Source: an uncultured delta proteobacterium
GTDB lineage: Bacteria > Desulfobacterota > Syntrophobacteria > BM002
Assembly: GCA_963712115.1 (NCBI GenBank)
Contig: CAVQGX010000042.1
Span: forward strand, 121,299-185,298
DNA length: 64,000 nucleotides
Direction of reading: 5' to 3'
Shown here: positions 168 to 56,920 of the stretch, piece after piece
Position numbering within the stretch: the first letter of the stretch is position 1
How the letters are laid out: each line of letters begins with the position of its first letter
Made by a program: the position numbers and the translations under genes
Notes under the pieces: generated by a model
Databases searched by the model: none
Told to the model about the DNA's origin: nothing
The model's input: the letters and a program-made list of their open reading frames with translations, nothing else

Positions 168-236
168 TTAGCGGAGTGACACGGAGAGGCAAGCATTTTT
201 CTCCGCGTCTCCGTTTCTCCGGTTCGCCCAGTCGAC
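168..236. repeat. Short inverted repeat array (CGGAG / CTCCG units)
   Basis: gcggagtgacacggagag ... ctccgcgtctccgtttctccgg form complementary arms. Confidence 0.55.
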
Positions 237-296
237 CTGCACAGGCTAGCGCCGTTCTAGACAGATTTTTTTGCCTGCAATCAAGGTATCGTACGC

Positions 297-1133
297 ATGA
301 GAACTTTGACTCTTGGTTTCTCCCCTTGCCCCAACGACACCTTTATTTTTGGAGCACTCGCCACCGGCAAGCTTGAGGTTCCCGGCTTCCGGCTGGAGAT
401 AATCCACGAAGATGTGGAAGCCCTGAATAAACTTGCCAGGGAAGCCCTTCTGGACTTTACCAAAATATCTTTTCACGCCTTCGCACTGGTGGTAAAGCGC
501 TACGCTCTCCTTCGCTCCGGTGCTGCCCTGGGTAGGGGCTGCGGCCCCCTGGTGGTAGCAAGGGAACCAAGGGATATGGACAGTCTGCGCGGGGAAGCCA
601 TAGCTATTCCTGGAGAGCTAACTACAGCAAATCTCCTTCTCCAGCTTTACGGAGAAGGTTTTGCCCATGTACACCCAACGTCCTACGAAACCATCATGCC
701 ACGGTTACAGCGCGGCGAGTTTGCTGCTGGTGTGGTCATCCATGAAGGGAGATTTACTTATCACAACCACGGATTACACCAGGTGCTGGATTTGGGCGGC
801 TGGTGGGAAGAAACCCAAGATCTTCCTATTGCACTGGGAGGAATTCTTGTTCGCCGCGACCTTGGTTATGATGTTGCCGAGGTAATAGAGGATGCTATTC
901 GCCACAGCTTGAACTTCGCTCGCCAAAACTCAGAAGAAATCTGGCCCTATATCAAGACGCACGCCCAGGAGATGGACGACGAGGTAATAAGGCAGCATAT
1001 AGATCTTTACGTCAATGAGTACTCCCTTGATTTGGGGGAGGAGGGTAGGCTCGCCATCAAGACACTGCTAGAGCTGGCCCATAAACGTGGCCTCCTGCCC
1101 CCTGTGACTGCTGGTCTTTTTCTGACGGACTAG
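297..1133 (+). CDS. mqnD: 1,4-dihydroxy-6-naphthoate synthase (menaquinone futalosine pathway)
   Basis: N-terminal GFSPCPNDTFIF, LGRGCGPLVV, VIHEGRFTY, HIDLYVN motifs. Confidence 0.93.
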   Translation: MRTLTLGFSPCPNDTFIFGALATGKLEVPGFRLEIIHEDVEALNKLAREALLDFTKISFHAFALVVKRYALLRSGAALGRGCGPLVVAREPRDMDSLRGEAIAIPGELTTANLLLQLYGEGFAHVHPTSYETIMPRLQRGEFAAGVVIHEGRFTYHNHGLHQVLDLGGWWEETQDLPIALGGILVRRDLGYDVAEVIEDAIRHSLNFARQNSEEIWPYIKTHAQEMDDEVIRQHIDLYVNEYSLDLGEEGRLAIKTLLELAHKRGLLPPVTAGLFLTD

Positions 1134-1151
1134 CTGAACGGAAGAACAACA

Positions 1152-2306
1152 ATGCGCACAGAGAACAACAAATTGACCGTCACCTATTTTCCCTACACCT
1201 TAATGCATAAGAATGACCTGAAAAGGTTAATCCCTTATTTCGATAACATTCGGTTACTTCAAGTTTTCCCTGATTCTGATCCTGGGCTGCCAGATCTGGT
1301 CCAGACCTCCCAGCTGGTACAACTCTACGCCCCCATATCCAACCCGGCCCTATTAGAAACCGTTAGCAGAGCACGCAAAACATATGATCAACTGGGAAGA
1401 GTTCACCAGGATGGCCTGGCTCATTTGCTTCAAACCTTTGCCTTACAGGAGGATTTCGAGGGCTCTCGCACTGGTCTAGTGGCGAGAATTAGGCAGGCTC
1501 ACCCTCGGTTGAGTGAAGACGAGCTGGAATTTGTTAACGATGCTGTCTTCATCCTTCTCGCTCATCAATTCGATCAGGAGCATCTCGAATTGGATCTACA
1601 GCTGGAGCGAATCCGTGGACTGGAGGCCAAGTTTCAGGAAGAGGTGGGTATTGGTACCGACGAAGAAAGCGAGATCACGGCGGCGACATCGGTATTATTG
1701 CAAGAGTCGGATCCACCTCGAGCTCAATATCCTTTCCAACGTCTGAGGGGTTGGACCCATCTTTATTGTTTACAGAAGCATATGTCATCTTTTCCTGCCC
1801 TCACTACCAGCCCAGAGGTCTTGTCGGAGATTGTTGAACGGTTGCCATCCCAGTTTGCCGCTCTCTCGGGAGAATTGCCGGCAATGGAAATGGAACAGCA
1901 TCTCCTGTCCATTCTTCCAGATCCCCAGTCGCTTTCTCTGGAAGAGGTCCTGGAATTCAGACGGTTGCTGAGCCGCGAGTCAACTGTGGATAATTGGCGA
2001 AAGTCCCTTACTGCCGTTTTTGAACAACTAGAGCGAGAGCCACTCCAAGAGGTAATGTGGCAAGAAATAAACCATCATCTGCAAGAACAGGCCCATGGGT
2101 TTCGCCAGCTCTGGCCAGCCTCTGAAAAGCCCAGCCGCTACCTGAAGCTCGAGTGCCTGTGCTATCCCAGGATGCAGCCAGAGGTGGCTTTTGCCTTAGC
2201 ATCTGGCCTAAAACTGCCGGCTGCAAAAATGTACGCCCCCGCGGACACCAATGGAATTACGCTTTTAATCTACCCGTCAGAAATTCAACCAGGTGACAGA
2301 CAGTAA
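1152..2306 (+). CDS. Hypothetical protein
   Basis: 384-aa ORF 18 bp after mqnD, protein-like composition, no recognised motif. Confidence 0.75.
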   Translation: MRTENNKLTVTYFPYTLMHKNDLKRLIPYFDNIRLLQVFPDSDPGLPDLVQTSQLVQLYAPISNPALLETVSRARKTYDQLGRVHQDGLAHLLQTFALQEDFEGSRTGLVARIRQAHPRLSEDELEFVNDAVFILLAHQFDQEHLELDLQLERIRGLEAKFQEEVGIGTDEESEITAATSVLLQESDPPRAQYPFQRLRGWTHLYCLQKHMSSFPALTTSPEVLSEIVERLPSQFAALSGELPAMEMEQHLLSILPDPQSLSLEEVLEFRRLLSRESTVDNWRKSLTAVFEQLEREPLQEVMWQEINHHLQEQAHGFRQLWPASEKPSRYLKLECLCYPRMQPEVAFALASGLKLPAAKMYAPADTNGITLLIYPSEIQPGDRQ

Positions 2307-2378
2307 CTCCCAGCCCTCAATGTCTATGCGGAGTTAAATGCATAGGCGTATTGCTCAAATCTAAAATATCCGGGCTAA

Positions 2379-5490: not shown

Positions 5491-5529
5491 ATCGAATTCG
5501 GAGTTCAATGCGGAACGGGAAACTCTATT

Positions 5530-5688
5530 AAATTCTAAATCCCAAATCCTAAGCACCAAACAAATTCAAATTCTCCAAATCCAAATGATCCAAACTCAGG
5601 ATGAGTCTATTTGTGCAGTTCCGTTTTGAACATTGGAGAATTGGGATTTTGAATTTGTTTAGGATTTAGATATTGTGATTTAGGATTT
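5530..5688. repeat. ~160-bp imperfect hairpin built from AAATC(C/T)-type units, copy 1
   Basis: Left arm ...aaacaaattcaaattctccaaatccaaatg pairs with right arm cattggagaattgggattttgaatttgttt; related copy at 8076-8235. Confidence 0.85.
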
Positions 5689-5735
5689 CTGCCTCAGTTT
5701 ATCGAGCATCCAGCATCAAATATCCAGTATCGGTT

Positions 5736-6746: not shown

Positions 6747-6771
6747 GGGGCCTTTCCTTAGAGTGCTGAAA

Positions 6772-6919
6772 GTCAGCTAAAATGAACTAAAGCGAGCTCA
6801 AGTGTCTAAAATGTCTAAAGTGCCTAAATTTAGGAATTCAAAAAATGAAGATCTACTAGATGACTGACTAAAATCCTCATCTTAATTCCTCAATTCCTTA
6901 ATTCTGCAATCTAAAATCC
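6772..6919. repeat. Intergenic repeat mosaic (9-mer TG(T/C)CTAAA array, AATTCCT and AATCT units)
   Basis: aagtgtctaaaatgtctaaagtgcctaaa; aattcctcaattcctta; aatctaaaatc. Confidence 0.8.
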
Positions 6920-8075: not shown

Positions 8076-8235
8076 AAACCCGAATATCTAATATCGAAAT
8101 ACTAAACAAATTCAAATTCTCCAAATCCCAATGACCAAAAGTAAAAAAGAGTCTGCTTGTAGAATTCCGTTTTGAACATTGGAAAATTAGGATTTCGAAT
8201 TTGTTTCGTGCTTCGGATTTCGAATTTCGGATTTA
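8076..8235. repeat. ~160-bp imperfect hairpin, copy 2
   Basis: Shares aaacaaattcaaattctccaaatc and ttccgttttgaacattgg with 5530-5688, same orientation. Confidence 0.85.
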
Positions 8236-11279: not shown

Positions 11280-11455
11280 GCTTTACTAGGCACTAGGCCC
11301 CAAGAACGAGAAGGCGGAATTCGGAACGCGGAGCGCGGAATGTTTCGACAAAGCAAATCCAAGTAAATCTTTTCTCTAGTTCTGTGATTCCGCGTTCCCC
11401 GCTCCCCGCTTCGAGTTGTAGTGCATAGTGCCTACTGTTTAGTGCTTAGTAGCAG
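11280..11455. repeat. Nested inverted repeat mosaic
   Basis: actaggcactagg ... gcggaattcggaacgcggagcgcggaat ... attccgcgttccccgctccccg ... tagtgcctactgtttagtgcttagt. Confidence 0.75.
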
Positions 11456-11881: not shown

Positions 11882-12013
11882 AGGGTGTCGGGTGTCAGGT
11901 TTCAGGTGTCAGGGAGGAGAAACACAAAAACTGAAACCTGAAACCTCAATCATTGATTAGTCCAGAATTATATTTTGTCACTCCAGTACTCCAATACTCC
12001 ACTGCTCCATTAA
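11882..12013. repeat. TCAGGTG/CTGAAAC hairpin plus TACTCCA array
   Basis: ggtgtcaggtttcaggtgtcagg ... ctgaaacctgaaacct; actccagtactccaatactcc. Confidence 0.8.
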
Positions 12014-28039: not shown

Positions 28040-28350
28040 CCATCAGCGATCAGATTTCAGCTAAATATACATAAACCCAATTACTTAAGCTGAATGCTGA
28101 AAACTTAAAGCTCCAGCCGGAAATCTTTGCTTTCCTGATGGACGCTAATTTAAGAATCCCTTATGCTGAAAACCCGGCTTTTATTTGCCCAAGGAAGGAA
28201 CTTTTGATTCTGACCTTGATTGTGACGGGGTCAGAAACCAGAATTCAAGAGAATTACCCACAGCGCAAGGCAATAGCCTGCTATTGCCTTGCGCTATGCC
28301 AACTGAATTCTGGCTTCCTGCCCTGAGCCTGTCGAAGGGCTGACTCCTGT
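28040..28350. repeat. Repeat mosaic including CCCTGAGCCTGTCGAAGGG
   Basis: tcagct/agctga arms; agcgcaaggcaatag...ctattgccttgcgct hairpin; cagaattca/tgaattctg arms. Confidence 0.65.
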
Positions 28351-31457: not shown

Positions 31458-31733
31458 TTTAGATTTGAGATTTTAGATTTAAGATTTGAGAAGGCATAGA
31501 GCATAGGGAAAAGATAGCTGGCAGGAGGCAGCGGTCAGCAGGCAGCCGCAGTTAGAGGTTGGAGGAGCGCTACGCTTTAGGTTGGAGGCAGGTCTTGGCG
31601 GATTTGTAAGAGTTCAGCGATTTATATGGTTTCAACGTTTTGAACGACTTGAACGATTTTAACGACCTCTAACCCATGACCCATTACCTTAACTTTAGGC
31701 ATTTTAGCTCACTTTAGACACTTTAGACATTCA
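31458..31733. repeat. Ordered intergenic repeat mosaic
   Basis: gatttga units, gcatagagcatagg, ggcaggaggcagc, aacgacttg units, tttaggcattttagctcactttagacac. Confidence 0.85.
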
Positions 31734-32391: not shown

Positions 32392-32596
32392 AATCCAGTA
32401 GCAGTAGCCAGTAGCCAGTAGTCAAAAAGAAATCACTCTTGCTTGCTTTTCTCCTAAATTCTGGACTTCTGGCTCCTATCTCCATTCTCTATGCCTTCCC
32501 ACATCCCAAATCTCAAATTCGAAATTCGAAATTCGCAATTACTTCCCTATGCCCCGTGCCCTATGCCTTGCCATCCCAATCCGCAATCCGCAATCT
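32392..32596. repeat. Intergenic repeat mosaic
   Basis: gtagcca units ... ctggacttctggct, aaattcg units, ccctatgcc, aatccgc units. Confidence 0.8.
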
Positions 32597-35055: not shown

Positions 35056-35202
35056 GGTTGTCGCTGTGTTCGCCTCTCACTTTTTGCTTGACCGTAGCAC
35101 ACAATGCTTGGGAAGGTCAAAAAGTCCAAAATCTCAAATCTCACATCCCAAATCCGCAATCCGCAACCTAAAATCTCAAATCTACAATCTGCCTTCTGAC
35201 CT

Positions 35203-35374
35203 CCGACCTCTGACCCCTACCAATTACAACAAATGACAGCGCAGCGTAATGACCTAATGACGCCGAAGGCTAATGACAGAGTAGCCTGATCATGGCAAGG
35301 TCAACTTGAGCGAACCGCGGCTGCCTGCTGTCAGTTGCCTCCTGCCGGCTGTCTTACCCCCATGCTCTATGCCT
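35203..35374 (+). repeat. 172-bp dispersed element, copy 1
   Basis: Identical by eye to 44161-44332; reverse-complement copy at 50902-51063. Confidence 0.9.
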
Positions 35375-35609
35375 CCCCAAATCCCAAATCCGAAATCCGA
35401 AGTCCCAAATCATAAACCTTCCCTCTGCGCTCTCCGCGCTCTCCGCGGTAAATGATTATCTTGCCTGAAAGGACATTTATTATTACTATTGCCTTTGGGG
35501 GGCTCGTGCTAGATAATGACTTTGATTCAATGAGCTTTCAACCTCCGAAGAGGTTGGAGGAGAAGTGATAACTGCTGCTTTCTCCGGGTGGTGCTAAAGG
35601 AGATTCAGA

Positions 35610-36252
35610 ATGAATAGGTGTATGTTCTTTTCCATTCTGGTTGCAATTGTGTTGCTGTTTCCCAATAATGCCTCAGCGGACAAGGCTCCCCGTAAAATAG
35701 CAGGGACTTACCCTGGGAGAGCAGATTTCCATGTTTGTCGACCTTGTACAAATGGAGACCTCCATAGTACTCCGTGATCGACAGTATTTGCGCGAAGTAA
35801 ATATTCGGGAAATCGACGGCTATAAAAGCGGCACCGTGGACTTTGGCAACTGTTCCAAGCCGGGGCAGATTGTTCGGATCAAGTTAAAATATGAATACGA
35901 GGACAAGAATTTTTACGATGAACTTCTGGAAAAATTCAACAAGAAGTTTGGAGAACCTGATGAGTGGCGTGGCGACCCCTTTCACGTCATCATAGCCTGG
36001 AAATGGTCTTTCAGGGATGAGAACGGCAACAGCATCAGTCTGATCCTCCAGCACAGCAGGGACGAGGAATATAAGTGGGGAAACTCGATTAAGTTGACAA
36101 ACACCACCCTAATTGAACAAGAACGTCTATGTTACGAGAAGAGGAATCAGGAGGAAGGAGGTAGCAAAGAGAGCAAGTCCGCCTCCAAAGAGGCGCAAGC
36201 TGTCAGAAAAAGATTATCAACTTTTTATTCCCCAGTAAAATGTCTAAAATGA
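35610..36252 (+). pseudogene. Exported hypothetical protein, frameshifted (possibly sequencing error)
   Basis: Signal peptide from ATG 35610 (AAGGAG RBS) shifts frame at GCAGGGACT ~35705 into ORF 35731-36252; probable second shift near 36190. Confidence 0.65.
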
Positions 36253-36595
36253 ACTAAAATGTGCTAAAGTGCCTAAAATTAAGGACTTAAGAGCTTTCAA
36301 AATAATCTCGCAAATAGCGATCTTATTCCCAAAATCCGCTTTGCTCCTGGCGCGATTCGCTTCGCGGTAATTTGCACCAACAGAAGTACCTGATTTCGTC
36401 ATTTGAGTCCTCACTGCCCTCCCTTTTGGTGTATTCGGCAGAGACGACGAAAGACGAACAATGTCAATTGCAAATTGCTTCGTCCGCTCCTCCAACTCCT
36501 TTGCAAACTTCTTAATATTCCTCGCCATTAGCCCCTACTCTTTAGCTCATTTTAGACACTTTAGACACTTTAGGCATTTTAGGCATTTTAGATAC
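36237..36595 (-). mobile_element. Four-helix-bundle cassette 2 with inverted 9-mer tandem arms
   Basis: Left arm aaatgtctaaaatgaactaaaatgtgctaaagtgcctaaa; right arm tttagacactttagacactttaggcattttaggcattttag; ORF between them. Confidence 0.7.
36244..36528 (-). pseudogene. Four-helix-bundle (23S rRNA IVS / Avd-like) protein, 3' part deleted
   Basis: LEERTKQFA...QMTKSGTSVGANYREANRARSKADF.NKIAICE, then runs into flank DNA. Confidence 0.85.
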
Positions 36596-36596
36596 T

Positions 36597-38016
36597 TCAC
36601 ATCAACGCCCTGGCGGCGGCTCGGGCAAGCTCTAGCAGGTATTGGGGAAATACCCCAAGGACCAGCATTGCCGTTACCAGTGCTCCCGTGAGCATTTTGG
36701 TGGGAATGGACACTTGCAGGCGGGGCAAAGATTGATCCGACTCCAGGAGGTAGGCGGCTCTCACTACCAGAATGTAGTAGTAGAGAGAGATCACCACATT
36801 GATCATGGCGATGAGCACCAGGGTGAAATAACCCTTCTTCATGGCAGCGGCAAAGACAAGGAATTTACCGGTGAAGCCAATGGTCGGCGGAATACCGGCC
36901 AGACCAAAAACTCCCAGCATCAGAGCCATGGCCAGCATGGGGGAGCGACGATGTAACCCGGCCAGTTGGGCGATCTTCAGATCGCTGCCGTCATAGGCCA
37001 CTTTGACCACCACCAAGAAGCAGGTGAACTTCATTATCAGATATGCCACGGCATAAAAGATGGCGCCGGCATATCCACTCTGATTCATGCTGAGAATCCC
37101 GATAAGGACGTAGCCGGCGTGGGAGATACTGGAGTAGGCCAGCAACCGTCTTCATGTCTTTCTGCACGATTGCCACTAGATTTCCCAGAGTCATGGAAGC
37201 GATGGAGAGAGTAACCAGTACGTGAACAAGATAGATGCTGCTGCCGCTGCTTAGGGCAACCATTCGGGTGAGGATAGCCACTGCCGCCACCTTCGAGGCT
37301 GTGGCAATGTAAGCGGTGACCTGATTTGCTGCTCCTTGGTAGGCGTCAGGAGCCCAAAAGTGAAAGGGGAAAACGGCTAGCTTAAAGAAAAACCCGCACA
37401 AGGTAAGGAGCAGGCCGATTATGGCGGCGGGCCTTCCTATGACGGAGGGAAGTACTGTTATAATCTCAGCCACATAAGTGGTGTGAACAACACCATAGAG
37501 AGAGGCTATGCCAAATAGCATCACCGCAGAAGTAAAGGCTCCCACCAGAAAGTACTTGATACCCGACTCCACATGAACTCCGTAGCCCTTCCGGAGTGGA
37601 ACCAGAAGGTAAAGGGAGTAACTGGAGAGTTCCAGGGCCACGTAGATCGTCAGCAACTCGACACTGCTGACCAGCAGCATCATGGCCAAGGTGCAGGTGG
37701 TCATTAGAAGGTAGAATTCTGGATGGTGGTTCTCCTGAATCCCCTTGAGTTCAGAGCAGATGCAGATTACCAGGAAAAAACCTGTGGCTAGGACGAGTTT
37801 GAAGACCTGAGAAAATAGGTCCACCCGATAGACATTAAAGAATAGAGTTCCCTCCAGCTTGACTGAGGCCAGACAAACCACCACGCCTACAGTGGCCAGA
37901 AGGAGAGCGATGAAAAAATCCCTTTTGGGATTGGACTGCAACACCATAGCCAGGCAGAGGAATACACCTATCATCAACATGAAATACAGTTCAGGTATGA
38001 ACAAGCCCCATTGCAT
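36597..38016 (-). CDS. nuoN: NADH-quinone oxidoreductase subunit N (one frameshift near 37149)
   Basis: [30 protein letters not shown], then [22 protein letters not shown]; removing one base restores DMKRLLAYSS. Confidence 0.88.
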
Positions 38017-38037
38017 AGGTGCAATCCACTACTGGGT

Positions 38038-38592
38038 AAAATGTCTAAAGTGCCTAAAGTTATTTTGCAGTGCCTAAAATGTTCTAAAATGTGCAAAAAT
38101 GCCTAAAATTAAGGACTTAAGAGCTTTCAAAATAATCTCGCAAATGTCAGTCAAAGCCACGTTCCTATTTTTTTCCGATAGAAGTGAAAATAGCCAGTAG
38201 TTCACTACATTCATCATAATGAGGCTGCAATTCATCCCAGGACTTCCATCCTACTCCTGCAATTACTTCTAGCCATTACTGAGTTTCACTAGCCTCACTT
38301 TCGCAAATAGCAATCTTGTTCCTAAAATCCGCTTTGCTTCTGGCCCGGTTAGCTTCACGGTAATTGGCCCCAACAGATGTCCCTGCCTTGGTTAATTGAG
38401 TTCTAATGGTCCTTCCTTCCGGCGTATTTGGCAAACTCGATGAAAGACGGATGATATCGATTGCAAATTGCTTGGTTCGCTTCTCTAACTCCTTTGCAAA
38501 CTTCTTAATATCTCTCGTCACAATCTGACGCCTTTATCTCGTTATAGACACTTTAGACATTTTAGACACTTTAGTTCATTTTAGGCATTTGA
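38038..38592 (-). mobile_element. Four-helix-bundle cassette 1 with inverted 9-mer tandem arms
   Basis: Left arm aaatgtctaaagtgcctaaa...tgcctaaaatgttctaaaatg; right arm tagacactttagacattttagacactttagttcattttaggcattt. Confidence 0.7.
38165..38521 (-). pseudogene. Four-helix-bundle (23S rRNA IVS / Avd-like) protein with one internal TAA
   Basis: 118 codons: ...GTSVGANYREANRARSKADFRNKIAICESEASETQ*WLEVIAGVGWKSWDELQPHYDECSELLAIFTSIGKK; TAA at 38276-38278 where Tyr (ETxYWL) is expected. Confidence 0.88.
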
Positions 38593-38606
38593 AATGCCGG
38601 TGGCCA

Positions 38607-38912
38607 TCACCACTTCAGGATGTTGTAAGTGTCCGGATCCAGTGAGCCTGTCCGTCTATAGGCATATATAATCAATGCCAGCCCCACAGACACTTCGGCT
38701 GCTGCTATGGCAAAGATGAACAATACAAACACCTGTCCCTCCAACTGCTGCCAGCGCAGTGAAGCGGCAACGAAGGCAAGCCCGGCCGAGTTCAGCATGA
38801 TTTCCACACCGATGAGCATCATAATCAAATTACGCCGAGCCACAGCGCATACCACCCCCATGGCGAAAAGAATCCCCGCAAAAAAAAGGACATGACTGTA
38901 CGGCACTATCAT
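38607..38912 (-). CDS. nuoK: NADH-quinone oxidoreductase subunit K
   Basis: RRNLIMMLIGVEIMLN, GQVF, AAAEVSVGLAL. Confidence 0.94.
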   Translation of the reverse strand: MIVPYSHVLFFAGILFAMGVVCAVARRNLIMMLIGVEIMLNSAGLAFVAASLRWQQLEGQVFVLFIFAIAAAEVSVGLALIIYAYRRTGSLDPDTYNILKW

Positions 38913-39512: not shown

Positions 39513-39685
39513 AATGTCTAAAATGAACTAAAGTGTCTAAAATGCCTAAAATGATCTAAAATCCGAAAGCCGCAATCCGACATCTGTCTTCTGTCCTCTG
39601 ATCTCTGATTTCCGACCTCTGACCTCTGACTCCTGCCTCCAACCTAAAGCGTAGCGTTCCTCCAACCGCGACTGCCTGCTGTCTC
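39513..39685. repeat. Intergenic repeat mosaic
   Basis: 9-mer array, aatccg units, tctgacc units, and a 36-bp block that is the reverse complement of 31558-31593 (1 mismatch). Confidence 0.8.
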
Positions 39686-41329: not shown

Positions 41330-41475
41330 GGTGGGCACCACCCACCGATAGATTTTCCCTGGCTCGTGTTAGATCTGTGGAGTATTGGAGTGTTGGAGTG
41401 TTGAGGAATGCCTCTAAGACATTGTATTTCTTCGCTTCTTCCATTACTCCATTACTCCAGTACTCCATTACTCCG
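41330..41475. repeat. REP-like GGTGGGCACCACCCACC plus GGAGTATT/TACTCCAT hairpin
   Basis: ggagtattggagtgttggagt ... ccattactccattactccagtactccattactcc. Confidence 0.8.
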
Positions 41476-41507: not shown

Positions 41508-44019
41508 TTAGGTACTGACTTTTTTTACGTCCTCATATGACACAAACTTCGGCAAGCTCTTTATCTTCTGCCACTCTAGCAACCGATGTCGCGGCAAAAC
41601 CATTACCCCGGGAGCCATATCCTCTTCTACCCAGACATCCACTTCAACAACGCCTTCGTCCAACTTGATTTTTACTTTATCCCCACGGCCTAGCCCCAAT
41701 CTAGCGGCATCATTGGTATGCATGGAAGCGCAGGGACTTTTCTCCAACTTCCTGAGGGGAGGTGAAAACGAGGAGAGTTCTTCGGTTCCGAATGTCCAAT
41801 CAGTCAAGATGACTTCCAAAGAGTCCTTAGGGTCGTCGCCTTTATCTTTCTCCTCCTGCCAATTTGCTGAAAATTGAGGTGGGGTGTCATCAGATGAGCT
41901 GATCAGCATCCCGTCGTCAGTAAGTTCATCGAAATGCGGGACCTCCGCCAATGCAGGTATATTGTCAGCTAGCCAACCAAGCAGGTTCCGCCGGGTGCTA
42001 CCTTCATCTTCAACTGAGCTACCATTTGCAATATGATTTAGAAACTGAGAGGCGGCTCGCACCTCTCCGCCGGGGATTTCACTTTCATAGACCCTTGGCG
42101 GATGGTTCCCACCACCAATCTGAGCAATAGAAGTTCCCCCCAGATAGGCCTTTGGAGCAGCCTGTAGTCTTCCCTCCTGGTTGATGAACATTCCACCTGA
42201 CTCGTATAATGTCGAGGTGGGCAGGAACACATGAGCTTTCTGAACCGCGGCCGACTCAAGGTAATCAAGGACAACGAGCAAATCCAGCTTTTCTATGGCC
42301 AGATCTAACCTCTGCCTGTGGTGAAAGTTGTGAAAGGGGTCATTTTCAACCAGGATCAGACCTTTGATCCTACCGTTTTCCATGCCTTCGAGTATCTCCA
42401 AAAAAGAGAACTTTTTGCTGGCGAGCAATGAAGCCCCGAAAGAATTAGCTTGAGGCAGCAAATAAAAAAGACCTGCTTGCTTTTTCGCAGCCCGCAAGAG
42501 TTGGGCATGGTCGGCCGCCAAGGCAGGGGTGGTCTCTCGCACAATCTGAGTCCCGCAGACGATTACCACCCTTCGACTGGCTCGAAGTTCTTGTGCCAAA
42601 GCAGAAGCTTTTTCTTGAAGTAAGTCCGGAACAATCTCAAAGGTCGGTGCCTCTTGGTAGAATTCGGCAGCAGTCTCTCCAGCTTCTGCAATAACTTCGT
42701 GATCCACCGCTGCTTTGATCAACGCACCAAAGTAGAGATTTATCTCATCCAGCCTGCACAGGCAGGTGGGTGAAGTCGAAAGGCAAAAAGATGGGTCGTG
42801 GGTCTATTACAACTATCTTTGCGCCATTTCGCTGGGCTTGTCTCATTGCCAAAGCCGACATGGGAGCTTCATTGATCGGATCAGCTCCAAGTGCGAGAAT
42901 AAAATCTGCACCTTCCAGATCGCGGAGTGAAACCGCCAATCCTGGATCCAGTCGAGAGACTGCTGTTCTCACCTTTTCCGCCAGGGAGTTTTCCATAAAA
43001 TATGAGGGCCCTTGCCATGCCTTTTTCTGACAAAGCTGCTTGAGCACAGCCTGAGTTTCCAAACTGCTCCGCCCCGAGCCTAAGCAGGCAACACTGTCGG
43101 GGCCTGGACTATTTACGAGCTCTGCCAGTTTTTCCCTGGCAGTTCGGATAGCCTCCTCAGTGGGAACTTCCTTGCCGTCAATTAGAGCCTGCCGCGGCCT
43201 CGTCTCATTTCTAGCGTAGTGAAAGCCGTGGCGTCCCCGGTCGCAGATGAAATAGCCGTTTACAGCCTCACTGTATCTTGCTTCCTGTCTAACCACCTCA
43301 CGATAGCGGGCACTGGCTGTAGTGTGACATCCCAGTGAACAGTTTATGCAGAGAGAAGGACTTCGCTGGTAGTCCCAACGCCTGCCGAAGAATCGAGACG
43401 GTCGGTCAGTGTAAACCCCGGTGGGGCAGATGTCGCTTAAGTTCCCGCTGAAAGGGCTTTCCAGAATGCCGTCTTTAAACCGACCAAAATAAGTGCGATT
43501 GGCGCTTTGCATGACTCCCAAGTCGAAGTAGCCAGCAAACTCCTGGTAGAACCGTGAACACCTGTAACAGTGGATACAGCGGTTCATTTCGTGTTGCACC
43601 AAAGGTCCTAGGTACTGGTCTCGGTAGGTTCGTTTCAACCCCAAATATCTTCTCATTCCATGTCCACCCGAAATTGTCGTATCCTGGAGCAAGCAGTGGC
43701 CCCCTTCATCACAAACCGGGCAATCATGGGGATGGTTCAGCATCAACCATTCGATTACGTATTTGCGGAACTCAACCGCCTCTTCGTCGGTGGTGGAAAC
43801 TATCATGCCGTCCTTCGCATCGATCATGCAGCTCATTTGTACGCCTTTAAAAGGCCCCTCCAGGAACTTCACCGCACAAACACGGCACGCACCCACAGAC
43901 CCCAAGGCTTGATGGTAACAGAAGCGCGGAATCATTATGCCCAGTTGCTTCGCGGCTTCGATTACCTTTGTCCCTTCCGGGACTTCTATCTCACGATTAT
44001 CGATTATTATCTTTGCCAT
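41508..44019 (-). CDS. nuoG: NADH-quinone oxidoreductase subunit G (one frameshift near 42757)
   Basis: IPRFCYH, GACRVC, HPHDCPVCDEGG, CIHCYRC, CINCSLGC; continues in another frame as LDEINLYFGALIKAAVD. Confidence 0.9.
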
Positions 44020-44034: not shown

Positions 44035-44335
44035 TCAAGTGAGCTAAAATGTCTAAAGTGCCTAAAATTTGAAATCTGCAATCAGAAAGCAAAGAATCCA
44101 GTAGCCAGTAGCCAGTATTAATTTCGCAATTCGAAATTATTAATCCCTGATCTCTGACTTCCGACCTCTGACCCCTACCAATTACAACAAATGACAGCGC
44201 AGCGTAATGACCTAATGACGCCGAAGGCTAATGACAGAGTAGCCTGATCATGGCAAGGTCAACTTGAGCGAACCGCGGCTGCCTGCTGTCAGTTGCCTCC
44301 TGCCGGCTGTCTTACCCCCATGCTCTATGCCTACA
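44035..44335. repeat. Repeat mosaic containing copy 2 of the 172-bp element (44161-44332)
   Basis: 9-mer array, gtagcca units, then identity with 35203-35374. Confidence 0.9.
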
Positions 44336-44378
44336 CAAAGGAAAACAGATCCGCCTTAGGCGGAACAACTGACAAAAT

Positions 44379-45650: not shown

Positions 45651-45902
45651 AAATGCCTAAAGTGTCTAAAATGTTCTAAAATGCCTAAAGTTAAGGTAAG
45701 GGGTCGTTCAAATCGTTCAAGTCGTTCAAATCGCAAAAGCTTAAGTAGCCAGGACTCAGTAGCCAGAATCCAGAGAGGCATACGGCTCAGGGCTCAGGGC
45801 ACAAGGAAAAAAATTTAGTCTTCTATTGCCTTGTGCCTTGCGCCTTATGCCTTGCGCCTATCATCAATTTGCAATCTACAATCTAAAATCTTAAATCTAC
45901 AG
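45651..45902. repeat. Ordered intergenic repeat mosaic
   Basis: aaatgcctaaagtgtctaaa, tcgttcaaa units, ggctcagg/gccttgc hairpin, aatct units. Confidence 0.85.
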
Positions 45903-46386: not shown

Positions 46387-46635
46387 TAAAATGAGCTAAA
46401 ATGTACTAAAGTTTGGTTATAGGTTATGGGTTATTGGTCGTTTAAATCGTTAAAATCGTCCATCACAGAGGTCAGAAGTCGGAGATCAGAGATCAGCTTT
46501 ACCCCTGACCTCAGACATCTGATCTCTGACCTCTGAGTTCTACTTGCTGCCTGCTATCCGCTGTCTGCTGCCTGCTGAAACTCTATGCTCTATGCCTTTC
46601 CAAATCCGCAATCCGAAATCCCAAATCCGAAATCC
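46387..46635. repeat. Ordered intergenic repeat mosaic; inverted counterpart at 51135-51322
   Basis: 46462-46534 is almost the exact reverse complement of 51250-51322. Confidence 0.85.
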
Positions 46636-46637: not shown

Positions 46638-49600
46638 TTACCTATCAATATCCGGGAGAATGTAGTCAATGGATCCGATGGTGGCGATCAAGTCGGCTAT
46701 ACTCTCACCCACAGCCATAAGCGGCATTACTTGTACATTTGCAAACCCCGGTGAGCGTATACGGGTGCGGTACGAATAACCGAGTCCGTCACTCACAACA
46801 TAATAGCCCTGCTCTCCCCTGGGGATCTCGCAGGATGCGTAAGCCTCCCCTCTGGGGATCTTGGCTCCTCGGGTCACGTTGATAAAGTGATGTATCAGGC
46901 TCTCTATATCTTTCAACATGTCCGACCTTTGGGGGATCACATAGCGATAATCATCTGTCACGTAGCGCCCAGATGGCATCTGCTCCGCGGCTTGCTTGAT
47001 AATTTTCAAGCTTTGGCGCATTTCCTCGACCCTCACCAGATAGCGAGCGTAGCAATCTCCCTCGGTGGCAGTGGGAATCTCAAAATCAAAGTTTTCGTAG
47101 CCTGAGTAGGGAAACTTTTTCCGTAAATCCCACTCCAGGCCGCAAGCCCGCAAGTTAGGACCGCTTACACCCCAATCAATTGAGTCCTCCAAAGAAATGC
47201 GACCGATGCCTTGAGTTCTAGCTTTAAAGATGGGGTTTTTGGTTGTCAGAGCTTCGTATTCTTTGAGTCGATTAGGAAATATCTTGACGAAATGATCAAC
47301 AGCTTCTTTCCAGCCCTCCGGCAAATCCGCGGCAACGCCTCCCAGCCGGAACCACGAGGGATGCAATCGACCTCCGGTTATGAGCTCAACTATGTCAAGA
47401 AGGATTTCCCGCTCTCTAAAGGTATAGAAATTAGGGGTCATGGCCCCCAAGTCGTGAGCGAAGGTAGCAAAAAAGACGAGATGATTGCTTAAGCGGAAAA
47501 ACTCGCTGAGCATAACCCTGATCACCTGGGCCCGCTCCGGAACTTCTATACCAGCCAGAGTTTCAACGGCCATGACGTAGGGAAGATTGTTGGCTGCCCC
47601 AGCCAAATAATCCACACGATCTGTATATGGAATGTACTGGTTCCAGGTTTGTCTTTCGCCAATTTTTTCCGCCGCCCGATGATGGTAACCAATGTCCATG
47701 TCCATTTCGGTTATTTCTTCACCGTTGAGGGAAACTATATAGCGCATCAAACCGTGGGTACTTACATGGTGGGGACCGATGTTTAGTATGAGCTCGTGTT
47801 CTCTACCCTCTCTTTTGATGTAGATACCGCCGTCCAAGGGTTGGAGCCTCTGGGCATCGGCAAGAGTGTAAGGAGTCATTTCCGTGGCTCGACCTGGATG
47901 ACTCTTTCTCAGGGGATGGCCCTCCCAGTCGTGGGGCATAATAAGTCTCCGCAGGTTCGGATGGCCTTCGAACCTTATGCCAAACATGTCGAATACTTCC
48001 CGCTCGTACCAGTTTGCAGAGGGCCAGATATCAGTCACACTTTGAGCTAAAGGATCTTGCCTTTTAATCCCACTTTAAGCCGCAACCTGGTGGCGGGCAA
48101 AAATATTTGAATTGTTATAATTTTAAGTTTAGGATTTATGAATAAATAGGAGGTAGAATATTGGTGGCAGTGGGAATCTCAAAATCAAAGTTTTCGTAGC
48201 CTGAGTAGGGAAACTTTTTCCGTAAATCCCACTCCAGGCCGCAAGCCCGCAAGTTAGGACCGCTTACACCCCAATCAATTGAGTCCTCCAAAGAAATGCG
48301 ACCGATGCCTTGAGTTCTAGCTTTAAAGATGGGGTTTTTGGTTGTCAGAGCTTCGTATTCTTTGAGTCGATTAGGAAATATCTTGACGAAATGATCAACA
48401 GCTTCTTTCCAGCCCTCCGGCAAATCCGCGGCAACGCCTCCCAGCCGGAACCACGAGGGATGCAATCGACCTCCGGTTATGAGCTCAACTATGTCAAGAA
48501 GGATTTCCCGCTCTCTAAAGGTATAGAAATTAGGGGTCATGGCCCCCAAGTCGTGAGCGAAGGTAGCAAAAAAGACGAGATGATTGCTTAAGCGGAAAAA
48601 CTCGCTGAGCATAACCCTGATCACCTGGGCCCGCTCCGGAACTTCTATACCAGCCAGAGTTTCAACGGCCATGACGTAGGGAAGATTGTTGGCTGCCCCA
48701 GCCAAATAATCCACACGATCTGTATATGGAATGTACTGGTTCCAGGTTTGTCTTTCGCCAATTTTTTCCGCCGCCCGATGATGGTAACCAATGTCCATGT
48801 CCATTTCGGTTATTTCTTCACCGTTGAGGGAAACTATATAGCGCATCAAACCGTGGGTACTTACATGGTGGGGACCGATGTTTAGTATGAGCTCGTGTTC
48901 TCTACCCTCTCTTTTGATGTAGATACCGCCGTCCAAGGGTTGGAGCCTCTGGGCATCGGCAAGAGTGTAAGGAGTCATTTCCGTGGCTCGACCTGGATGA
49001 CTCTTTCTCAGGGGATGGCCCTCCCAGTCGTGGGGCATAATAAGTCTCCGCAGGTTCGGATGGCCTTCGAACCTTATGCCAAACATGTCGAATACTTCCC
49101 GCTCGTACCAGTTTGCAGAGGGCCAGATATCAGTCACACTTTGAGCTAAAGGATCTTGCCCTTTTAATCCCACTTTAAGCCGCAACCTGGTGGCGGGCTC
49201 GAAGGACAGCAGATTGTAAACCAGAGTATAATCCGGGTAGTTCTGGCGATTCCTGCGAGTAGATTCATCAACAGCAGTAAGATCCTCTAAACGTTGGTAC
49301 CGTGGGGTGGCCTCCTGTTTGAGGAATTTAATCATCTCTTTGAGCCGCTCTTCCTCCACCTGAAAGGTAAGCATGTCAGAGGTTTGCTCCGTCTGCTTCA
49401 CACTGTCGCTGAACCTTTGTTGAAGAGTTTTGGCCAGACTATTGTCACCCTCACTTAACTCGATTCGTCTCGACGGTGGCGTCCACATTAAATCCGAGCG
49501 GCTGTCCCAGAATCCAGGCGGCACTGAGGAAGTTCCCCGTATGGCAGTTCCTTGCATTCCGGGCCCCCGAGGATCTCTAGACTTTGTTTGGCCGTCAACC

Positions 49601-50127
49601 AGAATAGGCTTTTGAGTCCCTTGGGTTCCACCCTTAAGATGGAAGATTGTGCGAGTTGGTCGTTCCTCGGCAACTATTTTTTCCTGCAACATTACGAGCC
49701 CTTGTAGTACGGCCTCAGGTCGCGGCGGACAGCCTGGGATGTAGACATCCACCGGCAGTATTTGATCCACTCCCTGAACCACACTGTAGGCATCGTACAT
49801 TCCCCCGCTGTTGGAACAAGAACCCATGGAGATGACCCACTTAGGTTCCGCCATCTGCTCGTAAAGCCTTAAAACAACCGGTGCAATCTTTTTGAAAACC
49901 GTGCCAGAGACAATAAGGAGATCCGCCTGCCTCGGTGAAGGCCGAAGCACCTCTGCTCCGAACCGAGCCATGTCATATCTGGCGGTGAAGGCTGCTGCCT
50001 CCTCGACGAAACAGCATGAAAGGCCGAAAAACATAGGCCAGAGACTGTACTTGCGAGCCCAGTTAATCAGGACGTCAGCCCCCCTCAAGAGGGGGTTGTT
50101 CAATCCTCTCTCGATGTTGGCCCCCAC
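46638..50127 (-). CDS. nuoBCD: Fused NADH-quinone oxidoreductase subunit B/C/D, interrupted by an internal duplication
   Basis: GLSCC and PGCPPRP (B), [16 protein letters not shown] (C), GPHHVSTHG...PDIDR (D); joining 50127-48163 to 47063-46638 gives one 797-codon frame. Confidence 0.88.
47064..49198. repeat. ~1035-bp direct duplication (47064-48098 and 48163-49198) with a 64-bp AT-rich spacer
   Basis: Copies match by eye except one C indel (ttgcctttt vs ttgccctttt). Confidence 0.92.
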
Positions 50128-50510
50128 TCGAGCCCTCCCTTCCTCCAAATGTAAACAAGGCCAAGAAGCAGGACGAAGATAAAGAAGGATATCTGCAGCC
50201 AGCCAGCCCAACCGAGCCTGTAGTAGGAGATGGCCCAAGAAAAGATGTAGGCTGCTTCCACATCGAAAATTAGGAAAAAAATGGCAACAAGAAAAAATGG
50301 AACGGGGTAACGGAGGCGGGCTGAGCCTGTTGGGATGATGCCGCTTTCATACGGTCGCAGTTTTTCCGGATTCTCTTTCTTTTCCCCCAGCCAGGAGGCA
50401 AAGAAGAGGAGCACTGCCACCAAGCCCAGTACCATAAGACCATAGACGGCCAAGCTAAAAAGACCAGGCTCCCAGGGAGATAATGAAGCTCCATGAAGGA
50501 TTGGCTGCAC
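50100..50510 (-). CDS. nuoA: NADH-quinone oxidoreductase subunit A
   Basis: [28 protein letters not shown]; GTG start with GGAGG RBS. Confidence 0.94.
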
Positions 50511-50901: not shown

Positions 50902-51323
50902 GCATGGGGCATAGGGGTAAGACAGCTGGCAGGAGGCAACTGACAGCAGGCAGCCGCGGTTCGCTTAAGTTGACCTTGCCATGATTAGGCTACTCTGTCA
51001 TTAGCCTTCGGCGTCATTAGGTCATTAAGCTGCGCTGTCATTTGTTGTAATTGGTAGAGGTCAAAATCCAAAATTCAGGAAAAAAGCAATCAAGAGTAAT
51101 TTCTTTTCAACTACTGGCTACTGGAATCTCTGATTGCGGATTTGGGATGTGAGATTGCGGATTGCGGATTTGAGAAGGCATAGAGCATAGGGCATGGAGC
51201 ATGGGGGAAAAGACAGCTGGCAGGAGGCAGCTAACAGCAGGCAGCAAGTAGAGGTCAGAGATCAGATGTCTGAGGTCAGGGTTAAAGCTGATCTCTGATC
51301 TCCGACTTCTGACCTCTGTGATT
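50902..51323. repeat. Large mosaic: inverted copy 3 of the 172-bp element plus inverted copy of the 46462-46635 block
   Basis: Reverse-complement matches with a few substitutions and indels. Confidence 0.85.
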
Positions 51324-51594
51324 GAATTAACTGCCGTTTATGTTTAGAATTTAGTCTTGGACTCTTCCTTGACATCCGTTGCCGCCTGCAGCAATCTGAG
51401 TACAATTAAAAGATTCAGGAAACCGGAGCCCAATTCCAAAGGGATGGGCACTGAACAGACTGAAGCGAGCTCGAACAATACATGAATTGAGGTATTTAGG
51501 AATTCAGAATTTATGGTTTGATGACCTTAATATTAGTTTGATCATTATTTACGAATTGACTAATTCTCTAATTCCCTAATTCTCGTCGTTAAGG

Positions 51595-52371: not shown

Positions 52372-52471
52372 ATTTTAGATTGCGGATTTGGGATGCTTGA
52401 TCTGTTATGGTTATTTTAAATAATTTAGACACTTTAGGACATTTTAGACATTTTAGCTCACTTTAGGCACT
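52368..52471. repeat. GATT-unit array followed by TTTAG(A/G)CA 9-mer array
   Basis: tagattttagattgcggatttgg ... tttagacactttaggacattttagacattttagctcactttaggcact. Confidence 0.8.
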
Positions 52472-52490
52472 TCATAAGGGTGAAAAAACT

Positions 52491-55223: not shown

Positions 55224-55452
55224 GCAGCAGACCGCGGACAGCTGGAGGACAGAAGACGGAAGTAAGAGGTCAGATTGGGGATTTGGGATGTGAGATGTGA
55301 GATTTCGAATTTCGGGATTGAGGGATTGGGGAATTGGAGAATTAAGAGATTAGGCTTCCTTCTTTTTCCAATCCGTGAATTCCTTAATCCCTGAATTCCT
55401 AAATTTTTAGGCATTTTAGCTCACTTTAGGCACTTTAGACATTTTAGGCACT
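55224..55452. repeat. Intergenic repeat mosaic
   Basis: gattt units, gggattggggaattgg/aattccttaatccct hairpin, tttaggcattttagctcactttaggcactttagac. Confidence 0.85.
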
Positions 55453-55468
55453 CGAAGGTGGAGAAACC

Positions 55469-56725
55469 ATGTTGCTAGAAATTAAAGTCCCAAGCGTGGG
55501 AGAATCTGTAACCGAAGCTACCTTGGCCCAGTGGTACAAAAAAGAAGGCGACCAGGTGCGCAAGGGTGAACTCCTTTTCGTACTCGAGACCGACAAGGTC
55601 ACCCTTGAGATAGAAGCCGAGGCCGATGGGGTTTTGAAAATATCAAAATCGGAGGGCGAGACCATACCAATCGGTGGAATTGTCGGCACAATTGATACGG
55701 AGGCCGCCCCGGAAGCAGTGGAAGAGGTTGCCCCCGCTGAGGCGGTAGAGCCGCCCCCGGCAGCTCCGGCACCACCTGCCGAACCACCGCCGGCAGAGCC
55801 GGCCGCTGAAATCCCTTTAGCAGCAAAGCCAGTTCTACCCCCCTCAGTCCGCAGACTTGTGGCCGAGAGAAACTTGGATGCTTCGAAGATAACGGGCACC
55901 GGGCCTGGAGGGCGAATCACCAAAGGTGATGTAATTCTCTATCTGGAGCAAGCAGCGGTGGCAGTACCCAGTGTGGTTCCGGCACCACAGCCATCTTTGC
56001 CCCAGGAGGTTGCTCCTGCAATTGAAGAGTCCATTACTCGCAAGCCTATGAGCCAGATAAGGCAGCGAATTGCCGCCCGTCTGCTAGAAGCAAAGCAAAA
56101 TACTGCCATGCTCACTACCTTCAATGAAATTGACATGACCAGGGTCCAGGAGATTCGCGCTCATTACAAGGAACCTTTCCACAAAAAGTATGGAGTTAGG
56201 CTTGGCATCATGTCTTTCTTTATCAAGGCGTGTGTGGAGGCCTTGATGGAATTTCCCGAGTTAAACGCCTACATACAAAACAAGGACATCATCTATCACA
56301 ACTACTATCACCTGGGCGTTGCCATTGGTGGTGAACGTGGCCTGGTGGTCCCGGTGATTCGGGATGTGGACAAACTCAGCTTCGCCCAGTTGGAGCAGGC
56401 CATTATAGACTATGTAAAGAAGATCCAGGAAAACCGCCTCGAACTTGCCGACCTCGAGGGCGGCACTTTTACCATCACAAACGGCGGCGTGTTTGGCTCG
56501 CTGCTGAGCACTCCGATTCTAAACATTCCTCAGAGCGGCATTCTGGGCATGCACAAGATCGAGAAACGCCCGGTGGTGTTAGACGGTCAGATAGTAGTGC
56601 GGCCAATGATGTATGTGGCCCTGACCTACGATCACCGCATTGTAGATGGAAGACAAGCAGTAACATTCTTGGTGCGCATCAAGGAGTTCATCGAGGAACC
56701 AGACCGGATTATGATAGAAATTTAG
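55469..56725 (+). CDS. sucB: Dihydrolipoyl succinyltransferase E2
   Basis: Lipoyl ETDKV, GTGPGGRITKGDV, AMLTTFNE, YDHRIVDG. Confidence 0.95.
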   Translation: MLLEIKVPSVGESVTEATLAQWYKKEGDQVRKGELLFVLETDKVTLEIEAEADGVLKISKSEGETIPIGGIVGTIDTEAAPEAVEEVAPAEAVEPPPAAPAPPAEPPPAEPAAEIPLAAKPVLPPSVRRLVAERNLDASKITGTGPGGRITKGDVILYLEQAAVAVPSVVPAPQPSLPQEVAPAIEESITRKPMSQIRQRIAARLLEAKQNTAMLTTFNEIDMTRVQEIRAHYKEPFHKKYGVRLGIMSFFIKACVEALMEFPELNAYIQNKDIIYHNYYHLGVAIGGERGLVVPVIRDVDKLSFAQLEQAIIDYVKKIQENRLELADLEGGTFTITNGGVFGSLLSTPILNIPQSGILGMHKIEKRPVVLDGQIVVRPMMYVALTYDHRIVDGRQAVTFLVRIKEFIEEPDRIMIEI

Positions 56726-56741
56726 TCGCCGTCCGTTGTTC

Positions 56742-56920
56742 GGGCATAGGGCATGGAGCATGGGGCATAGGGAAGGAATTTCGAATTGCGGATTGCGAAA
56801 TTTGAAATTGTCTCGTTGCGATTTGAAAGATGTGAACGATTTTTACGTTTTGAACGACTTCAACGATTTTAACGACCCATTACCTTAACTTTAGACACTT
56901 TAGGCATTTTAGGCATTTTC
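56742..56920. repeat. Intergenic repeat mosaic
   Basis: ggcatagggcatggagcat, aatttcg/attgcg units, aacgacttc units, tttagacactttaggcattttaggcatt. Confidence 0.85.

Follow-up and report, generated by a model that had tools for sequence, protein, structure and literature searches.

The closest described thing to the elements reported here is the intervening sequence of 23S ribosomal RNA (rRNA) that bears an open reading frame (ORF), known from Coxiella burnetii (helix 45) and Leptospira. In the accessible part of one report, the Coxiella sequence measures 428-444 nucleotides (nt), is closed by a terminal stem of 28 bp, inside which a PF05635-family gene is decaying, and is cut out by RNase III in vitro (PMC4990558). 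We analysed a 64-kb window, meaning the whole stretch of 64,000 nt from contig CAVQGX010000042.1 of an uncultured deltaproteobacterium, in which most operon spacers carry tandem arrays of 7-9-nt units. These arrays are probably the arms of a large and diverse population of hairpin elements, among which gene lineages have arm units of their own. We take them, tentatively, for gene-less copies and relics of selfish cassettes that form an undescribed family.

The likeness to the rRNA intervening sequence extends, as far as the accessible part of PMC4990558 goes, to a unit of 430-480 nt with terminal inverted repeats giving a stem of about 28 bp, to a sporadic occurrence among relatives and to a gene that is often decaying. 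Both also hold a PF05635 four-helix-bundle gene in the loop, here in the gene-bearing (filled) form only, the gene-less hairpins being without ORF. In contrast to the rRNA intervening sequence, the units studied here lie in spacers of protein-coding genes and not in an rRNA helix, their stems are tandem arrays of 7-9 nt specific to the gene lineage, and hundreds of them are gene-less hairpins; RNase III cutting, known in vitro for the Coxiella sequence, is hypothetical here.

The inverted doublets of repetitive extragenic palindromic (REP) sequences called REPINs, and the REP-associated tyrosine transposase (RAYT), were reportedly described by Bertels and Rainey in 2011; the doublets are said to be intergenic and to occur in dozens to hundreds around a Y1 (HUH) transposase gene. 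Our elements resemble them in being inverted doublets that are mainly extragenic, in having a single- or low-copy gene with those repeats as flanks, and in keeping one repeat family per gene lineage. They differ in that the flanked genes belong to TIGR02436 and TIGR04256, that the four-helix-bundle protein has no known enzymatic activity, and that the arms are periodic. The one RAYT of this genome (C20:238078-238593, NF047646) is flanked by a different, non-periodic palindrome. Since the cargo gene is not a RAYT, membership in the REPIN-RAYT system fails. Bacterial interspersed mosaic elements (BIMEs) of enterobacteria are spacer mosaics of a few modules in alternating orientation and recurring order; their modules, however, are REP palindromes and not tandem arrays, and we know of no gene-bearing form.

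Short tandemly repeated repetitive (STRR) sequences of cyanobacteria are reportedly the subject of papers by Mazel and colleagues. In the accessible part of PMC4679880, STRR and TAACTGA repeats (cyanobacteria, Beggiatoaceae, Bacteroidetes) are, like ours, tandem heptamers of intergenic DNA, often placed in operons just upstream of starts, with several units mixed per spacer and with the same spacer of close relatives free of repeats. In that part they are treated as direct arrays built from a single unit or a small number of units, and no gene is linked to them, whereas the arrays described here are mostly inverted pairs, comprise hundreds of units, are tied to gene lineages and belong to an uncultured host of a Syntrophobacterales-type deltaproteobacterial lineage. 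Geobacter metallireducens, a member of the former Deltaproteobacteria too, has sites, present in many copies, that each comprise three to five tandem units of 7-9 nt and mostly form opposite-strand pairs at variable distance, according to the accessible part of PMC2700814; that text, its supplement aside, reads the sites as global-regulator binding sites and has no cassette gene. Among open-access papers and preprints, with the supplements of PMC2700814 and PMC4679880 outside the search, we found none that ties PF05635 genes to heptamer arms.

Within the window, Tandem Repeats Finder returned 114 rows, nearly all with a period of 7, 8 or 9 or multiples of these. The genes were masked by a crude ORF rule of our own, free of annotation (at least 100 amino acids, longest first, non-overlapping), under which 79% of the window is coding. 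By this mask, the rows divide into 104 in intergenic DNA, where arrays occupy 2,477 of 13,250 bases (19%), and 10 in coding DNA, where they occupy 282 of 50,750 (0.6%). Fifty dinucleotide-preserving shuffles of the intergenic DNA gave on average 2.36 rows and at most 5. The initial annotation, made from the letters of this window, had described its spacers as mosaics of short repeats, a view that arrays equally frequent in genes or in shuffled controls would have contradicted; the counts confirm the observation. After removal of redundancy, 72 arrays with 46 distinct canonical units remain, far above the at least ten families proposed there, with copy numbers from 2 to 9. At least one array lies in 26 of the 44 spacers longer than 20 nt, in agreement with the estimate of some 25 spacers, and 18 of the 44 hold two or more. 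Thirteen of the 14 units it had listed are present as tandem dimers with at most one mismatch (0 to 0.1 in 20 shuffles). The other, AATTCCT, forms no heptamer dimer in the window and is present as the 8-mer AATTCCTC. The seven hairpins it had named all fold (z -2.5 to -6.3; 0-3 of 200 shuffles as good), six of them with arms of tandem units, but the one at 28263-28296 is not built of arrays.

The same pattern holds at the scale of the genome, a 4.9-Mb bin of 70 contigs that is 94% complete with an estimated contamination of 6%. The named records nearest to it are metagenome-assembled genomes from sediments, assigned to uncultured Deltaproteobacteria / Syntrophobacterales. The bin gave 4,676 repeat rows; 2,115 have period 7, and the crude mask places 88% of these between genes. 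The heptamer arrays draw on 257 distinct canonical units, headed by GCCTAGT (144 arrays), CAGAGGT (120) and AAATCCG (103). With overlaps removed, 2,961 arrays of period 7-9 remain. Arrays of period 7 and of period 9 both have a median length of 28 nt, and those of period 8 one of 29 nt; with so little change between periods, it is the array and not the unit that sets the length. Per kb, co-directional spacers hold 2.6 arrays, convergent ones 2.8 and divergent ones 1.55.

Arrays of the same unit (at most one mismatch) separated by gaps of 0-300 nt are inverted in 232 cases and direct in 28, so hairpins are the rule in this genome. At distances of 700-3,000 nt, inverted and direct pairs are about equal in number. 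Ordinary genes framed by same-unit arrays 700-1,000 nt apart were considered as cargo and rejected as chance neighbours, the framing arrays being inverted in 17 cases and direct in 24. Orientation relative to genes depends on the family. Arrays of TTTAGnnnn 9-mers point toward the next start codon in 29 cases and away from it in 11, ending at a median of 18 nt upstream of the start, and 9-mers of the TTGAACGA type are strongly oriented (9:1 and 1:9); heptamer families are mostly without strand bias relative to transcription. A universal order of modules was rejected, as 698 of 931 neighbouring array pairs are distinct and order is common only to copies of one composite block.

A minority of arms enclose a gene. 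TIGR02436, the four helix bundle protein family (PF05635, 23S rRNA intervening-sequence protein), has 14 matches in the genome that correspond to 13 genes, and reading of their flanks places nearly all of these between inverted tandem arrays whose unit differs from gene to gene. At least ten arm units were found at these genes: CAGCCGT, GCGAGACGA, a GACACGGC-like 8-mer, GAGGTCA, TTTAGRCAY, GCATGGA, GCATAGG, GTCATTA, GGGATTT and a CGATATT-like unit. The 9-mer TTTAGRCAY is the arm unit of both cassettes of the window. At least three of five GxxExxY genes (TIGR04256) also have inverted arms, of CACGAAG or CGCAGAG type, that reach the start codon. Cargo genes are therefore flanked by many units besides the 9-mer, as the initial annotation had anticipated. 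Five of the 13 four-helix-bundle genes are damaged (three with in-frame stops, one truncated, one interrupted). The interrupted copy, with GCATAGG arms (G000:C14:38471-39062), contains an 87-codon GIY-YIG nuclease-like ORF (38616-38831), which is a selfish gene nested inside a selfish cassette. Other copies in the genome are flanked by protein-coding sequence or arrays, and those of the window adjoin the nuoN-like gene.

A screen for any ORF with inverted flanks recovered the four-helix-bundle and GxxExxY genes; its 46 hits against 12.5 expected at score 14 are noisy, as common arrays match between unrelated flanks. It also picked up palindromes of the TAGCCCGGATATTTCATGAAT type and the RAYT with its own palindromes, which we set apart as outside the heptamer-array system. 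The TAGCCCGGATATTTCATGAAT-type repeat is abundant, palindromic and separate from the heptamer arrays, and generates many false small ORFs. DUF559 genes were not counted as cargo: there are two copies of one identical sequence, located at the ends of contigs, and their inverted flanks are G-rich without clear periodicity.

A profile of 20 four-helix-bundle proteins of the genus matches the solved structures PDB 2RLD (E 3e-28) and 2GSC (E 1e-25). Solved relatives of the family are pentamers, according to the accessible part of PMC4990558. According to the accessible part of PMC10053308, the family has a relative in Avd, which serves diversity-generating retroelements as accessory protein; Avd is absent from the matches of our profile among solved structures at E 0.01. 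The 20 aligned proteins are 11-41% identical in pairs, with Q42, S49 and E79 invariant and N53 and E56 nearly so (L053 numbering), and these residues together look like a conserved polar site.

Across the genus, the family occurs in 16 of 17 genomes, with 93 matches at E up to 1e-8. We sampled 71 genes, 11 from this genome and 60 of the 80 matches outside it, the latter being full-length matches with about 400 nt of upstream sequence on the contig, taken in listing order; the truncated copy of the window and the interrupted C14 copy were left out. An inverted-repeat score of at least 14 between the two flanks was reached by 63 of the 71 genes and by 4.7% of 300 mismatched flank pairs. Arm similarity was compared over 2,432 gene pairs without common outer flanks, which are different loci as far as detectable, though diverged orthologous sites may slip through. 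The Jaccard index of arm 6-mers was 0.002 for proteins less than 30% identical (n = 1,956), 0.20 at 75-90% (n = 55) and 0.54 above 90% (n = 13). The rank correlation between protein identity and arm similarity is 0.28, a value that none of 500 label permutations reached, kin being non-independent. Arms are thus specific to gene lineages. Matching the 40 commonest units of this genome to the 63 armed cassettes of the sample, we found 26 that match the arm of a cassette and account for 1,254 of the 2,961 arrays (42%); in 20 trials with letter-shuffled units, the mean share of matched arrays was 5% and the highest 9.7%. The earlier proposal that each unit family marks a cassette lineage stands as far as arm similarity rises with protein identity, and falls short for the 14 of 40 commonest units that have no cassette in the genus sample.

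Related genes occur outside the genus on plasmids. Of eight plasmid four-helix-bundle genes, four lie between heptamer arms that are perfect inverted copies of each other (Nostoc flagelliforme, Nostoc punctiforme, Aulosira laxa, Planktothrix agardhii), and one of Chlorohelix (Chloroflexota) has a weaker inverted pair. Plasmid genes of the family are also seen inside defence operons, at cas2-cas1, before cas1, at drmD-MmeI and at helicase-methylase genes (L135, L136, L137 and L139, from Anabaena, Planktothrix, Pseudanabaena and Chlorohelix).

The far commoner gene-less hairpins are mostly copies rather than ruins. The GGTGTCA family has 28 of them in this genome, with conserved loops and flanks and no cognate gene. 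In two relatives (G004, G012) a gene lies between GGTGTCA arms and an intact gene-less hairpin just downstream of that gene (L130, L131). An alignment of 19 GAGGTCA hairpins shows next to no variation, even over 10 nt of left flank; one copy (L150) has exactly one 7-nt unit fewer than the other 18. Searches of the genome gave 43 matches for a 122-nt GAGGTCA query and, for a composite query of 270 nt, 98 matches to parts of it. The window itself has multi-module blocks, 115-187 nt in length, whose copies are 84-98% identical and lie in either orientation. Loops are more alike within a unit family (similarity 0.53) than between families (0.41). Since loops and flanks are conserved, these hairpins were copied as such and are not decayed genes. 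The initial annotation had taken them for non-autonomous scars; most are instead dispersed, near-identical copies, and one true scar was found, in the relative G008. In a comparison with miniature inverted-repeat transposable elements, inverted arms are present, and the flanks of the 28 and of the 19 copies, read by eye, show conserved element ends and no obvious target-site duplication; no transposase is linked.

Orthologous spacers turn over between sister genomes. We compared the nuo operon across seven relatives of the genus (nuoH 90-95% identical). The window has a gene with 9-mer arms between nuoK and nuoN, a second copy after nuoN and an 8-mer hairpin between nuoG and nuoH. G004 has no cassette between nuoK and nuoN and carries between nuoG and nuoH a 9-mer-armed gene of the type of the window (89% amino-acid identity). 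In G008 (L069), the nuoG-nuoH spacer retains both 9-mer arms and about 23 codons in the opposite orientation, and is the true scar of a decayed cassette. G010 has a different cassette between nuoK and nuoN, of the type carried at C30:121568 in this genome, and G013 has arrays and no cassette between nuoG and nuoH. The remaining relatives have other arrays, or the sense 9-mer array alone. In the nuoK-nuoN spacers of G013 (L066 4472-5295) and G008 (L069 5386-6020), a glyoxalase/VOC-like ORF of about 130 codons lies among arrays; ordinary-looking small genes may also ride in such spacers.

The sucA-sucB and sucB-lpd spacers differ equally between relatives, and one of these (L002, SucB 94% identical) has a sucB-lpd spacer of about 40 nt with no array. 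The idea that spacers are hotspots is borne out: from one sister genome to another, the arrays and cassettes of orthologous suc and nuo spacers are entirely different. Arrays and cassettes occur in 16 of the 17 genomes of the genus, three single-contig chromosomes included. Candidate excision events were rejected. A DNA contig (X8) joins 38058 to 38609, across the filled cassette between nuoK and the nuoN-like gene, with only 25 nt on one side, and another locus or organism is possible; joints bridging about 300 nt from one arm of the second cassette to the other have sides of 22-26 nt with foreign letters between, and are probably other 9-mer hairpins. Contigs from RNA libraries (X16, X17) cover parts of nuo, one of them spanning 38082-38459 of the first cassette; assembled contigs cannot show RNA ends, and we infer neither transcription nor cleavage from them.

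We propose that an element consists of two arms of the same unit facing each other, each of about 28 nt and thus of about four 7-nt or about three 9-nt units. In the filled form the arms would enclose a small gene, usually a PF05635/TIGR02436 four-helix-bundle gene and sometimes a GxxExxY gene, and in the far commoner gene-less form a loop of only 5-40 nt. Both forms would be gained, lost and moved among spacers on the time scale that separates congeneric species; gene-less hairpins and multi-module blocks would be copied as such to dozens of spacers, and some cassettes would decay in place. Lodged in transcribed spacers, the elements may be tolerated by pairing of their arms in RNA, mimicking the RNase III stem of about 28 bp of the rRNA intervening sequence. 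Conceivably, the four-helix-bundle protein recognises the periodic arms of its own element and assists in their copying or retention, and the elements spread either by copying with the help of this protein or by arm-mediated recombination. The gene-less hairpins would in that case stand to the gene as REPINs do to the RAYT. A more specific version is possible, if doubtful: a pentameric ring would read about 4-5 tandem copies of its own 7-9-nt unit and so drive copying or retention, in a symbiosis of gene and repeat that is transposase-free or uses a new enzyme. Taken together, the interpretation in the initial annotation is partly supported.

The arrays might instead be simple-sequence repeats produced by replication slippage that favours 7-nt units, with small genes merely landing or surviving there. 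The accessible part of PMC4679880 presents heptanucleotide repeats as the most abundant long-repeat class in most genomes and notes that polymerase slippage has been proposed; the hairpin (L150) that differs from its 18 relatives by a single unit, the spread of copy numbers from 2 to 9 and the 257 heptamer units of this genome would all fit. Yet slippage leaves unexplained the inverted pairing of same-unit arrays (232 against 28), the loops and flanks conserved across 19-28 copies, the multi-module blocks repeated at 92-98% identity, the lineage-specific arms and an array length of about 28 nt at every unit length, and we regard it as quite unlikely. Another reading makes the arrays and hairpins selected host elements of operon RNA, serving processing, stabilisation or translation control between cistrons in the manner of REP/BIME or TAACTGA repeats, with the genes as passengers. 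The arrays do sit between cistrons of the nuo, suc and hyp operons, TTTAGnnnn arrays face the next start codon (29 against 11) at a median of 18 nt, the TTGAACGA-type 9-mers are oriented 9:1 and 1:9, divergent (promoter) spacers have 1.55 arrays per kb, fewer than the 2.59 of tandem and the 2.80 of convergent ones, and the accessible part of PMC4679880 proposes a translational role for heptamer repeats just upstream of start codons. However, orthologous spacers with flanking proteins 81-94% identical bear different arrays or none, as at sucB-lpd in L002, so the operon needs no particular array, and heptamer families mostly ignore the direction of transcription; a host function as the origin of the system seems unlikely to us.

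That the arrays are artefacts of metagenome assembly or binning, such as chimeric joins or collapsed repeats, could be suspected from a bin of 70 contigs with 6% estimated contamination, from an exact duplication at a 1,099-nt offset inside nuoBCD that is missing from relatives, and from contig depth, which spikes at arrays. Like arrays and cassettes are nonetheless found in 16 of 17 genomes of the genus with three single-contig chromosomes among them, in records of named metagenome-assembled genomes from other studies and on finished plasmids of cultured cyanobacteria, and contigs from four independent public runs cover the region. We consider this explanation extremely improbable.

The reading of the arrays as arms of hairpin elements with gene lineages of their own has to be weighed against several facts. 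No transposase, target-site duplication or excision junction was seen. Compensatory changes were found in none of the 16 stem pairs of the 19 GAGGTCA hairpins, copies too alike to test selection on pairing. About 3,000 arrays face some 20 cargo genes, and a cognate cassette is present in this 94% complete genome for only six of the 40 commonest units, besides the 14 without one in the genus sample. Clear inverted arms are missing at eight of the 71 genus genes, and three of the eight plasmid genes (Anabaena cylindrica, Pseudanabaena, Bernardetia) have arrays and no inverted pair. The correlation of gene and arm would also arise without recognition of arms by the protein, through co-duplication or recombination through the arms. 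The orientation of two 9-mer families to the start codon suggests host use or polar insertion and not pure litter.

Table 1. Repeat elements, mosaic spacers and filled cassettes of the window (positions counted from its first base)
Feature	Position	Strand	Remarks
Gene-less hairpin, GGTGTCA / TGAAACC family	11884-11946	none	Conserved loop GGGAGGAGAAACACAAAAA; one of 28 genome copies; z -4.3
Gene-less hairpin, GAGGTCA family	46466-46536	none	z -5.6; within a 115-nt block, inverted repeat of the block at 51211-51325
Second GAGGTCA hairpin	51250-51318	none	Reverse-complement copy of 46466-46536; z -5.1
Gene-less hairpin, 8-mer arms GGAGTAAT / ACTCCAAT, nuoG-nuoH spacer	41378-41474	none	z -4.3
Gene-less hairpin, arms GGCTCAG / GCCTTGC	45784-45859	none	z -3.2
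sucA-sucB spacer	55273-55452	+	GATTTGG array; 8-mer hairpin 55314-55404 (z -2.5); sense 9-mer array TTTAGGCAC x5, stopping 17 nt upstream of the start codon
hypB-hypA spacer	11310-11450	none	Hairpin with GAACGCG / TCCCCGC arms (z -3.3) and TAGTGCT array
nuoD-nuoE spacer	46387-46635	-	Seven consecutive arrays; transcription order CGGATTT, CATAGAG, GCAGCAG, GAGGTCA hairpin, TTTTAACGA, TATAACC, 9-mers
nuoE-nuoF spacer	45651-45901	-	Five arrays; 9-mers among them abut the nuoF start codon
Mosaic block GATTGCG - GCATAGA - CAGCAGG - GAGGTCA hairpin	51132-51318	+	Same order as 46466-46635 on the opposite strand
Mosaic spacer AGATTTG - GCATAGR - AGCAGGC - TTGAACGAC - 9-mers	31461-31729	+	
sucB-lpd spacer	56742-56919	+	Arrays GGGCATA, GAATTGC, CGATTTGAA, TTTAGGCAT
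Multi-module composite of 160-190 nt, including a GTCATTA-type hairpin	35195-35381	none	Copies at 44153-44339 and (inverted) 50902-51078; 92-98% identical
Mosaic spacer, five arrays CCAGTAG, TCCCAAA, AAATTCG, CCCTATG, ATCCGCA	32395-32595	none	
nuoI-nuoJ spacer	39513-39639	-	9-mer array and GACCTCT x7.4
Sense 9-mer array TTTAGACAC x5	52424-52472	+	18 nt upstream of the sucA start codon
Perfect palindrome, 14-bp stem and 4-nt loop	28263-28296	none	z -6.3; no tandem units
Filled cassette a, between nuoK and nuoN-like gene	38037-38590	-	Inverted 9-mer arrays 38037-38109, 38532-38590
Four-helix-bundle gene of cassette a	about 38168-38521	-	One in-frame TAA; profile match G000:C42:159466-159783
Filled cassette b, after nuoN-like gene	36236-36597	-	Inverted 9-mer arrays 36236-36279, 36540-36597; 80-93% identical to cassette a
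Truncated four-helix-bundle gene of cassette b	36244-36528	-	Profile positions 3-61 of 109

The genes of the window are mqnA (futalosine pathway), dnaA, ddl, hypABDEF, moeA, the nuo operon and sucAB-lpd (repeat elements in Table 1), and some of them have irregularities of their own. In nuoBCD (46638-50238), an exact direct repeat at 1,099-nt offset (47064-47363 and 48163-48462) splits the gene into two overlapping ORFs that cover profile positions 8-650 and 327-791; it is a single gene in the five relatives whose stretch covers nuoBCD, and the duplication is either an assembly artefact or very recent. The nuoN-like antiporter gene (36597-38016) lies in two overlapping frames here and is contiguous in relatives; this split is a frameshift or sequencing error. 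nuoG is in two pieces (42745-44019, 41508-42722), with two adjacent matches in relatives too. Between 59738 and 63440, a region of lower G+C has direct repeats, 60-142 nt long, 73-80% identical and spaced 822 nt apart, which are not made of 7-9-nt units and are placed at 59738, 62552 and 63374, and at 61956, 62449 and 63271. A 134-nt repeat, 78% identical, at 5530-5688 and 8090-8234 flanks hypE-hypD, its inner inverted arms being rich in GGATTT / AAATCC.

What this window adds is the gene-less majority at genome scale, a table of units against lineages, and orthologous operon spacers seen in the filled, the empty and the decayed state. The roughly 3,000 arms of the 4.9-Mb genome fall into families by unit; these track gene lineages and turn over between congeneric species. 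In practical terms, the arrays break assemblies, create false ORFs and put 100-270 nt of structured RNA between the cistrons of nuo and suc. Heptamer repeats of spacers (STRR, TAACTGA) and the intervening-sequence protein have each stood for decades without explanation, and here they appear as one system at full scale. If true, recognition of tandem units by a pentameric ring would account for the rRNA intervening-sequence protein, a puzzle of 30 years' standing, and likewise for the surplus of heptamer (STRR) repeats in cyanobacteria, sulfur bacteria and these sediment bacteria.

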